Made by a program: the position numbers and the translations under genes
Source: Octopus sinensis
Lineage: Eukaryota
Assembly: GCF_006345805.1 (NCBI RefSeq)
Contig: NW_021835809.1
Location: forward strand, 1-38,375
Direction of reading: 5' to 3'
Length of the DNA stretch: 38,375 nucleotides
In this document: positions 17,777 to 19,232 of the stretch, piece after piece
Layout of the letters: the number at the start of each line of letters is the position of its first letter
Numbering within the stretch: the stretch's first letter is position 1
Notes under the pieces: generated by a model
What the model saw: the letters and a program-made list of their open reading frames with translations, nothing else
The model's database searches: none
Told to the model about the DNA's origin: nothing

Positions 17777-18217
17777 GTTGAAGAGAAATAAATGCTTGAC
17801 TCTCATTTTCCTTGTAAATTGCTTACTTCAATATTTAGACTCTTGTTTTCTTCTATTGTTTACCTTCCGTCTTACATCATCACGAAAATTTTCAATGCGT
17901 GTAACGCGCTTCTTTCTTTTGTTCTATTCTCTATACATGTATTCATAAGAACAGGAACGCATACATAGTTATATATATATATATATATATAATATATATA
18001 TATATAGATATATATATATATTATATATATATATGTATATAATAATAAATATTAGGGAATAAATCCAAATTTACAGGGAAAAAATCAGATTAGGATTAAA
18101 TCCAATTTTATAGTAAAATATTATATAATATTAATTCGAGACAAAACCACTATTTTGCAAAACAAACAAGGAAGACTTAATCAATACATAAAAATTTTTA
18201 ATATAAAGAAATAACCG

Positions 18218-18260
18218 CCACTACAATCGTTTCATGTCTTCAATGACATTCGTCAGGTGG
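18218..18260 (-). ncRNA. Minimal type I hammerhead ribozyme, left arm copy
   Basis: Exact reverse complement of 18329-18371. Confidence 0.88.
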
Positions 18261-18328
18261 ATTTTCGATCTCCTAATCTGTTTTAATTTATGAAGTCATA
18301 AATTAAAACAGATTAGGAGATCGAAAAT

Positions 18329-18371
18329 CCACCTGACGAATGTCATTGAAGACATGAAACGATTGTAGTGG
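18329..18371 (+). ncRNA. Minimal type I hammerhead ribozyme, right arm copy
   Basis: ccac-CTGACGA-atgtc(attgaa)gacat-GAAA-c(gatt)g-TA-gtgg: intact core, perfect stems I and II, minimal stem III, GUA cleavage triplet. Confidence 0.88.
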
Positions 18372-19232
18372 CGGTTTATTTCTTTATATTAAAAATTTTT
18401 ATGTATTGATTAAGTCTTTCCTTGTTTGTTTTGCAAAATAGTGGTTTTGTCTCGAATTAATATTATATATATGTATATATATATATATATATATATATAT
18501 ATATATATATATATATATATATATATATATATATATATATATATAATATATATATATATATATATATAATATATATATATCAAATAAAATACAAAATGGG
18601 ACAAGAACGCAAAACATCCTGACAACTAGGTGATACAAAAGGGTACAACAAAACATCCAGATAGACGATACAAAAGAAAAAACAAACATGGACGGGTCAT
18701 TCGAAGCCTTTTATCTTCAGTCAAGAATCGGATCATCCTCGCAATTTCGACTGATTAATAAATTTCTATATATATATATATATTTGTAAAAAATGAAGTT
18801 CGAAAATGCTGCTATATTATACAATTTTTAATTTTTATATATACATTATAACATGTTTCAGTTCCTGAAATGAACCTTATCAAAAAAAGTTATATATAAA
18901 AAAAGACAGCTCATGCCGTCAAACACAAGAAGTCAGACATCTTAGAGTTCATGTATAGTTGATATATAGTTTGAAGTAAGTTCATTCATGCTATATGTTC
19001 AAAGTGTTCGATGCAGTGGCCCACGGTGGCGATACGTATTCAATACAAAAAACAGATCAAAGTGGTGGAAAGCAGTCAATACAGAAGATTGATGTTTCCG
19101 AAAGAGCGAGGAATTCATTTTTACCTTAAGCAATTGTGATGACCCATGGTGGGTGTTCGCTGGGTGGTTCTAGTGAGTCTTGTGAATTGCTCGGTTTTAT
19201 AATGCCTGTTAGGTGGTCAGTCCAGCGTAGCG

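Follow-up and report, generated by a model that had tools for sequence, protein, structure and literature searches.

A palindrome of about 350 bp with a hammerhead motif in each arm lies in a 38,375-nt stretch of Octopus sinensis contig NW_021835809.1 (the window), and it raises the question of whether it is a mobile ribozyme unit in its own right or was left behind by another element. The sequence-only reading had described near-identical arms, a 2-nt spacer, a tail on the left arm only, (TA)n on both flanks and no coding sequence, and we confirmed all of this on the sequence. The centre is AG (18294-18295), with 81 bp perfect around it; the arms (18122-18293 and 18296-18469) differ solely by two 1-nt homopolymer indels, and the left arm alone has ~80 extra bp (18041-18121). 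Both flanks are (TA)n, and no ORF of at least 120 aa was found at the palindrome locus. Comparison with related copies suggests, with a probability of roughly 0.78, that the palindrome consists of two head-to-head copies of the spliced leader of a Hydra-type PLE, likely made in one abortive insertion in which a cDNA was primed from each end of a (TA)n cut. Its parts are as follows; arm positions (q) are those of the long arm, with q1 at 18293, counted outward on the minus strand.

17970..18040, no strand: (TA)n target, left part.
18041..18296, minus strand: long arm, a spliced PLE 5' leader that begins with the A of ACTTCAT at the putative start site (18296) and extends as far as the distal fixed 3' end; it matches exon 1 and exon 2 of the parent copy L098.
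18041..18121, minus strand: the "tail", ~80 bp between two fixed 3' ends (putative reverse-transcription start sites), defined by clusters of 3' ends at q~172-176 (short copies) and q~249-253 (long copies).
18218..18260, minus strand: minimal type I hammerhead, left copy, predicted cut after 18222 (motif and subfamily alignment).
18269..18270, minus strand: splice junction GGAG/ATCG, where parent copies have a GT-AG intron of 1.1-1.6 kb.
18270..18296, minus strand: exon 1, 27 nt, preceded in the parent by promoter-side sequence and followed by a GTATGT donor (comparison with parent copies).
18292..18297, no strand: head-to-head joint, ATGAAGTCAT context, with GA/TC microhomology.
18296..18469, plus strand: short arm, the same spliced leader to the proximal fixed 3' end, without the tail (arm comparison); its splice junction is 18319/18320.
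18329..18371, plus strand: minimal type I hammerhead, right copy, predicted cut after 18367 (motif and subfamily alignment).
18470..18580, no strand: (TA)n target, right part.

The form of the palindrome is no long-read artefact. The sequence-only reading had named a fold-back artefact as a danger, and this was ruled out: the arms end at different fixed points, and dozens of loci with different centres show the same form. Asymmetric head-to-head joints of the family were also present in short-read contigs, including a run labelled as another organism; these contigs speak at the level of the family, none being tied to the palindrome's own site, and one of the runs, X15, may derive from the sample used for the assembly.

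Two minimal type I hammerheads, one per arm, were indeed present. Read outward, each arm has helix I (CCAC/GUGG), the core CUGACGA, helix II, GAAA, a self-complementary helix III and a GUA site, with the CTGACGA...GAAA core at +18333 and -18256, the GUA cleavage triplet ending at 18367 and the mirror site at 18222. The features of a minimal type I PLE hammerhead, namely a CUGANGA and GAAA core, an unpaired base before helix II, a short helix I, a self-complementary helix III and an NUH site, were all found. The identification is based on the motif and an alignment of nine subfamily copies; Rfam searched with the palindrome returned no hammerhead match, only hairpin-driven miRNA matches. The core was unchanged in 9 out of 9 aligned copies and 94% of cells were paired, while helix III read CGAUUG, CAAUUG or CGAUCG in eight copies and CAUUUG in one. 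Three base pairs had changes on both sides, a value reached in 24 out of 500 shuffles, so covariation was weak. Self-cleavage of one arm alone is doubtful, because a single minimal PLE hammerhead did not cleave in vitro according to the available text of PMC4209133. The hammerheads here would be passengers.

The arm belongs to a young, dispersed family. A search with it gave 1194 candidate matches, of which 40 were scored, and an exact 29-nt core occurred 300 times (0 times for the control). Copies ended at the two places given above, and 116 out of 130 family 3' ends were followed by (TA)4 or more. Pairs were sampled from the first 100 listed of the 193 matches to the spliced junction; these came from 71 loci, all of which were used, and the loci contained 55 head-to-head pairs and 25 solo arms. 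The pairs comprised 46 long+short, two short+short and one long+long, together with six that had one unclassified end. After removal of two tandem duplicates, 44 out of 47 classified events were long+short (p = 1.2e-10 against 0.5). One tail-bearing and one tail-less arm, usually in (TA)n, is thus the rule, and a run-on into the ORF was seen at 0 out of 71 loci. Outside a strict two-ended event stand the 25 solo arms and the three same-end pairs, one of which (L116) proved to be a long arm split by a later insert. Target-site duplications are unreadable within (TA)n. The earlier description of the unit as young and non-coding held.

Some loci carried other DNA between head-to-head arms, 130-650 bp in four cases (L133:345-800, L158, L011 and L264). 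The filler at L133 had its nearest relatives (95% and 92%) within 10 kb and resembled local repair filler. The centre of a spliced palindrome at L260 was occupied by 2.4 kb (4139-6535) bounded by long terminal inverted repeats, which is probably a DNA transposon that arrived later.

The source of the arms was found in the same genome, which bore out the PLE origin proposed for them. One copy (L098) contains, contiguously, a promoter, a 27-nt exon 1 starting from ACTTCAT, an intron of 1.1 kb, an exon 2 that includes the hammerhead and the tail, and an ATG ~56 nt beyond the tail that opens the RT frame. The window's long arm matched exon 1 of this copy at 24 out of 24 positions and exon 2 at 97.4% over 234 columns, and it stops ~56 nt before the position of the parent's ATG. 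Two complete elements (L102 and L105) have the leader, ORF, nuclease and a long 3' UTR, after which the promoter region and both exons with the intron between them recur, giving a repeat unit of ~5.6-6.1 kb (L105, L102). Within the intron of L101 a SINE-like repeat had been inserted later, and in L110 a Neptune-like ORF, a later insertion into the AT-rich part, adjoins the 3' end.

The parent ORF (~840 aa) encodes an RT plus a C-terminal GIY-YIG nuclease, with the motifs DIDNYY, PMGA, YRDD, YLDV and YIG..R..H, which relatives at 32-42% identity share. We took the Hydra-clade motifs from the available text of PMC8557442 and compared published Hydra proteins by eye. SRIKWK (K for R) and SDKT of the parent fall in the same columns as RWK and DKT of its relatives, the Hydra-clade form being DKT in place of DKG. 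The linker has CTCRDKSNC and CYLC (CRH in L074 and most copies, CRN in L100), and the parent protein contains no CX2-5CxxC; the linker is thus of the Hydra type, with CxCX5C, without CCHH, and with CxxC and CxH flanking a conserved E and N. Targeting of (TA)n and a terminal-repeat hammerhead are further Hydra-clade features, whereas the size of that clade, generally <3 kb (typical, not strict), is exceeded. Pfam and PDB sequence searches with the parent named neither the RT nor the nuclease, and Atlas gave no result. By its motifs and layout, the parent is an autonomous Hydra-type PLE. An Asn-rich insert of ~80 aa lies between RT and nuclease (L074:4303-5499, L100:4988-7384) and recalls the N-rich inserts of Adineta Penelopes in the accessible part of PMC3846280. 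The ribozyme unit first proposed for the locus was therefore correct in being PLE-derived and non-coding, but not in being self-standing: an autonomous PLE is the source of the spliced 5' leader that forms its arms, and its one-sided tail is the rule.

The start site and the splicing were both read from DNA copies. Between q24 and q25, the parent-type intron begins with GTATGT and ends with TTTTAG. Four subfamilies differ in their exon 1 ends, and the short copies of each join the exons exactly at their own GT-AG (GGAG/ATCG, GACTT/ATTGG, TGAAA/ATCGG and AGAAG/ATCGG), so that exact loss of a GT-AG intron, the mark of a processed retrocopy, was found in four subfamilies. Intron loss by DNA deletion appears unlikely, because the second and third junctions (GACTT/ATTGG and TGAAA/ATCGG) have no repeat or microhomology. 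Exact junction matches numbered 193 spliced, 10 donor and 36 acceptor for subfamily A, to which the window's copy belongs, and 703 spliced for subfamily B.

At the other end, most arms stop at or just short of the Inr-like ACTTCAT, which we take to fit the initiator consensus. The base before it was C in 25 out of 25 promoter-bearing copies and, by hand tally, G in 57 of the 100 listed (of 111) spliced subfamily-B copies; most of these G cases are also readable from the partner arm, leaving ~4-7 out of 100 clearly untemplated, and a 30-arm sample was too ambiguous. A cap signature at the arm 5' end is likely on this comparison, and the GA/TC microhomology at the joint likely includes the cap-derived base. 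TCACT is called Inr-like in the available text of PMC3846280. Upstream extensions of 5 to ~360 nt were found in 13 of the 100 listed subfamily-B spliced copies and in 1 out of 30 in a mixed sample. Because spliced copies reach upstream of ACTTCAT, spliced RNAs with earlier starts evidently exist; the idea that splicing affects only a cap-proximal exon 1 is weakened by the same copies. Contigs of runs guessed to be RNA span the spliced junction, and one ends at 18296, although such contigs cannot show starts or expression.

In asymmetric pairs, the two arms were not copied from each other. Among 58 long+short pairs, 15 had a short arm that went beyond the 5' end of the long arm by 15 nt or more, and 9 showed the reverse; since such a short arm has 5' sequence that the long arm lacks, and the long arm has a tail absent from the short one, neither can have templated the other and two primings are needed. 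Paired arms nevertheless share a source. They had 15 substitutions in common (89 were unshared), against 1.2 expected on random re-pairing and a maximum of 6 in 3000 trials, and their splicing states were spliced/spliced in 38 pairs, unspliced/unspliced in 14, mixed in 0 and uninformative in 12, in samples that were drawn by junction pattern and in which a few overlapping loci were possibly counted twice. These figures would fit an origin of both arms from one RNA or one source locus, and later arm-to-arm conversion could contribute to the shared substitutions.

The same sharing of rare variants and splicing state would be expected if only one cDNA were primed, its 3' end folding back or switching template so that the second arm arose by second-strand synthesis and the short end was set by nuclease resolution, to which the tail is ascribed in the consulted portion of PMC8557442. 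A fold-back would also suit the commonest centre (33 of the 100 listed subfamily-B copies), in which a 2-nt loop separates the halves of a 4-bp inverted repeat. The 15 pairs just described exclude this route for asymmetric pairs, and we consider it unlikely.

We rate as quite unlikely an explanation in which the spliced leader is an independent non-autonomous element, SINE- or retrozyme-like, whose RNA comes from earlier short copies and which is moved in trans. Spliced arms do outnumber intron-bearing ones by ~5 to 1 (193 versus 36), the hammerhead core is intact in 93 out of 107 arms, and the Penelope promoter is internal in the available text of PMC2377424. Against this, no position between q25 and q172 separates 128 spliced from 33 unspliced arms, as a lineage of its own would show; the short copies of each subfamily track their own parent, no spliced leaders were seen in tandem arrays, and youth alone accounts for the intact cores.

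The idea put forward by the sequence-only reading, that the palindrome in its entirety moves as a fold-back ribozyme unit and acts as double-stranded RNA, is very improbable. It was right that a read-through transcript should form a long hairpin (predicted MFE -277 kcal/mol versus -27 for one arm), which would make each read-through copy a ready source of long double-stranded RNA, and the window's own centre does recur at unlinked loci (5 out of 71 loci, by pattern). But a mobile unit should keep a fixed centre, and 43 different combinations of arm start and gap were found among the 55 pairs; microhomology at the 5' end of the RNA accounts for the recurrence, and no identical private centres were seen at unlinked loci beyond local duplications. 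Because the centres vary, the palindrome is formed afresh at every insertion. The arms, moreover, are a spliced sense leader lacking diagnostic changes relative to intron-bearing parents and showing no sign of selection, so an undescribed ribozyme system is not indicated either. Assignment to MITEs or fold-back DNA elements failed on the variable centres, unequal fixed ends and spliced origin, and assignment to non-LTR retrozymes on their requirement for tandem hammerhead units, here replaced by an inverted pair. Self-priming on an antisense transcript, published to explain head-to-head junctions and intron retention together (available text of PMC3846280), is hardly credible here, since antisense RNA would not be spliced at sense GT-AG sites and in four subfamilies the sense-strand intron is missing, precisely, from both arms, which contradicts it for these insertions unless the antisense RNA was itself copied from spliced RNA.

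For the two spliced leader copies primed from a (TA)n cut, we propose the following course. The PLE enzyme would cut the (TA)n tract on both strands, and one cDNA would be primed from each target end, at one of two internal start sites on a sense, spliced RNA. The two fixed 3' ends would correspond to these start sites, by likeness to an anole PLE in vitro. The two cDNAs would share a single RNA or source locus as their origin; each would reach the capped 5' end or end prematurely, and microhomology would join them.

Copies that bear the ORF behave differently. Among 51 leaders joined to an ORF, none was spliced and 25 were unspliced; a further 23 were cut short ahead of the junction, and three were of other kinds. 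An initial prediction that full-length copies would have a spliced leader thus failed (0 out of 25 informative), which led to the model of an unspliced read-through template. Wherever the start motif was found ahead of an ORF (6 out of 20 loci, together with L098 and L105), genomic upstream sequence preceded it, and ORF-bearing copies appear to derive from unspliced RNA begun further upstream. A partial exception is L258, where ORF-start sequence is joined by a large deletion to a spliced junction and placed ahead of it. Under the proposal, processed mRNA could give short copies only, its start sites lying in the leader upstream of the ATG, and unspliced read-through RNA would give ORF-bearing copies with the intron; genomic elements would keep the intron because of this position of the start sites. 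The full scheme, two-ended target-primed reverse transcription in which a dimeric enzyme takes one sense RNA and makes cDNA from each end of the double-strand cut at two fixed internal sites, with spliced mRNA diverted into dead palindromes and read-through RNA making full elements, is in our judgement an even bet. If it is true, a single rule accounts for the inverted ends, for the tail on one side only and for the keeping of the intron, and the start site and splice junction of the element can be read from hundreds of palindromes.

The feature likely arose as a by-product when a PLE transposed, rather than being a new ribozyme system, and the locus itself is probably without function. Its geometry has been published, and what appears to be new are the spliced, start-anchored arms and the pair counts. 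Published systems are compared here from the available parts of the cited texts. For endonuclease-bearing PLEs, PMC8557442 gives an inverted truncated copy, a one-sided tail and a preference for (TA)n, and states that what intron retention signifies is unknown; together with Pen2a_Av (PMC3846280), these elements resemble ours in the head-to-head inverted 5'-truncated copy, the tail at one end, (TA)n and a microhomology joint. They differ in that here both arms are a spliced leader, anchored at the putative start site and without ORF, that the tail is ~80 bp rather than the 30-40 bp in print, and that the long+short rule and the shared splicing state are quantified. Protein motifs, a C-terminal GIY-YIG-type nuclease, the (TA)n target and the hammerhead link the parent to Hydra-clade PLEs including Hydra-1_Obim (PMC8557442), and the ~5.6-6.1-kb repeat unit, long 3' UTR, leader intron and Asn-rich linker set it apart; compared by eye, Hydra-1_Obim in the supplement looks like a separate family.

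In Schistosoma mansoni, opposite-strand minimal hammerhead pairs 100-700 bp apart have been reported (PMC4209133). They are likewise close and PLE-derived, but are given without mechanism in the text available, whereas for the octopus pairs the parent, the splice junction and both fixed ends were identified; insertions of this kind explain close opposite-strand hammerhead pairs. With anole Poseidon PAc in vitro, both strands were cut and extended, two internal RT starts bounded a tail, and uncleaved or unprocessed RNA was the template (PMC11167929). That element belongs to a different clade and starts 111-118 nt inside the ORF rather than upstream of the ATG, and inverted or spliced products are not addressed in the part of PMC11167929 consulted. 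The Drosophila virilis Penelope has a short first exon and an intron in its leader (PMC2377424) and shares with the octopus element a pseudo-LTR start site and an intron just upstream of the hammerhead that is kept in long genomic copies; its intron is 75 bp compared with 1.1-1.6 kb here, and intronless genomic leader copies are not reported in the available text of PMC2377424. Metazoan non-LTR retrozymes are also non-coding, PLE-derived and equipped with a type I hammerhead, but are defined as tandem units in the accessible portion of bioRxiv 10.64898/2026.07.22.740005, as opposed to the inverted pair here.

Spliced head-to-head leader copies were not reported in the open full-text literature searched; subscription papers (Arkhipova 2003, 2006; Pyatkov 2004) may describe them or a two-ended model. 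The insertions show that spliced sense RNA of this family was reverse-transcribed and integrated, in contradiction to the antisense-template idea. PLEs are the sister group of telomerase RTs, and their inverted ends and intron keeping are described as open in the available texts of PMC8557442 and PMC3846280. A defined 255-nt RNA and a (TA)n target would allow a direct in vitro test of the mechanism.

Tandem copies (up to ~4) of a locus-specific unit of ~240-460 bp were observed at eight loci (L208, L211, L213, L218, L221, L224, L232 and L235). The repeated junction leads from an early position in the ORF back into exon 2 (in L211, to the intron end), and most of these insertions keep the short and long end sites. 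The 408-bp unit of L218 holds a whole hammerhead, like a newborn retrozyme. The arrangement suggests circular RNA templates or repeated template jumps.

Elsewhere in the window, the (TA)n tract that holds the palindrome also carries a separate 185-bp insert (18581-18765), whose minus strand shows GAAA and CTGAAGA motifs in an unusual order; the insert has partial matches in L024 and L055 and is possibly another PLE end. A Neptune-like PLE that is frameshifted and has a GIY-YIG domain (Pfam E 7.9e-6) occupies ~19000-22010 on the minus strand, and the arms had no meaningful match to it at the DNA or protein level, as the sequence-only reading had said. Positions 1-4290 are a degenerate (TTAGGG)n array, making the contig telomere-like at this end, and positions 36436-36894 (minus strand) hold a transposase fragment that is presumably mariner-type, judged by its motifs.
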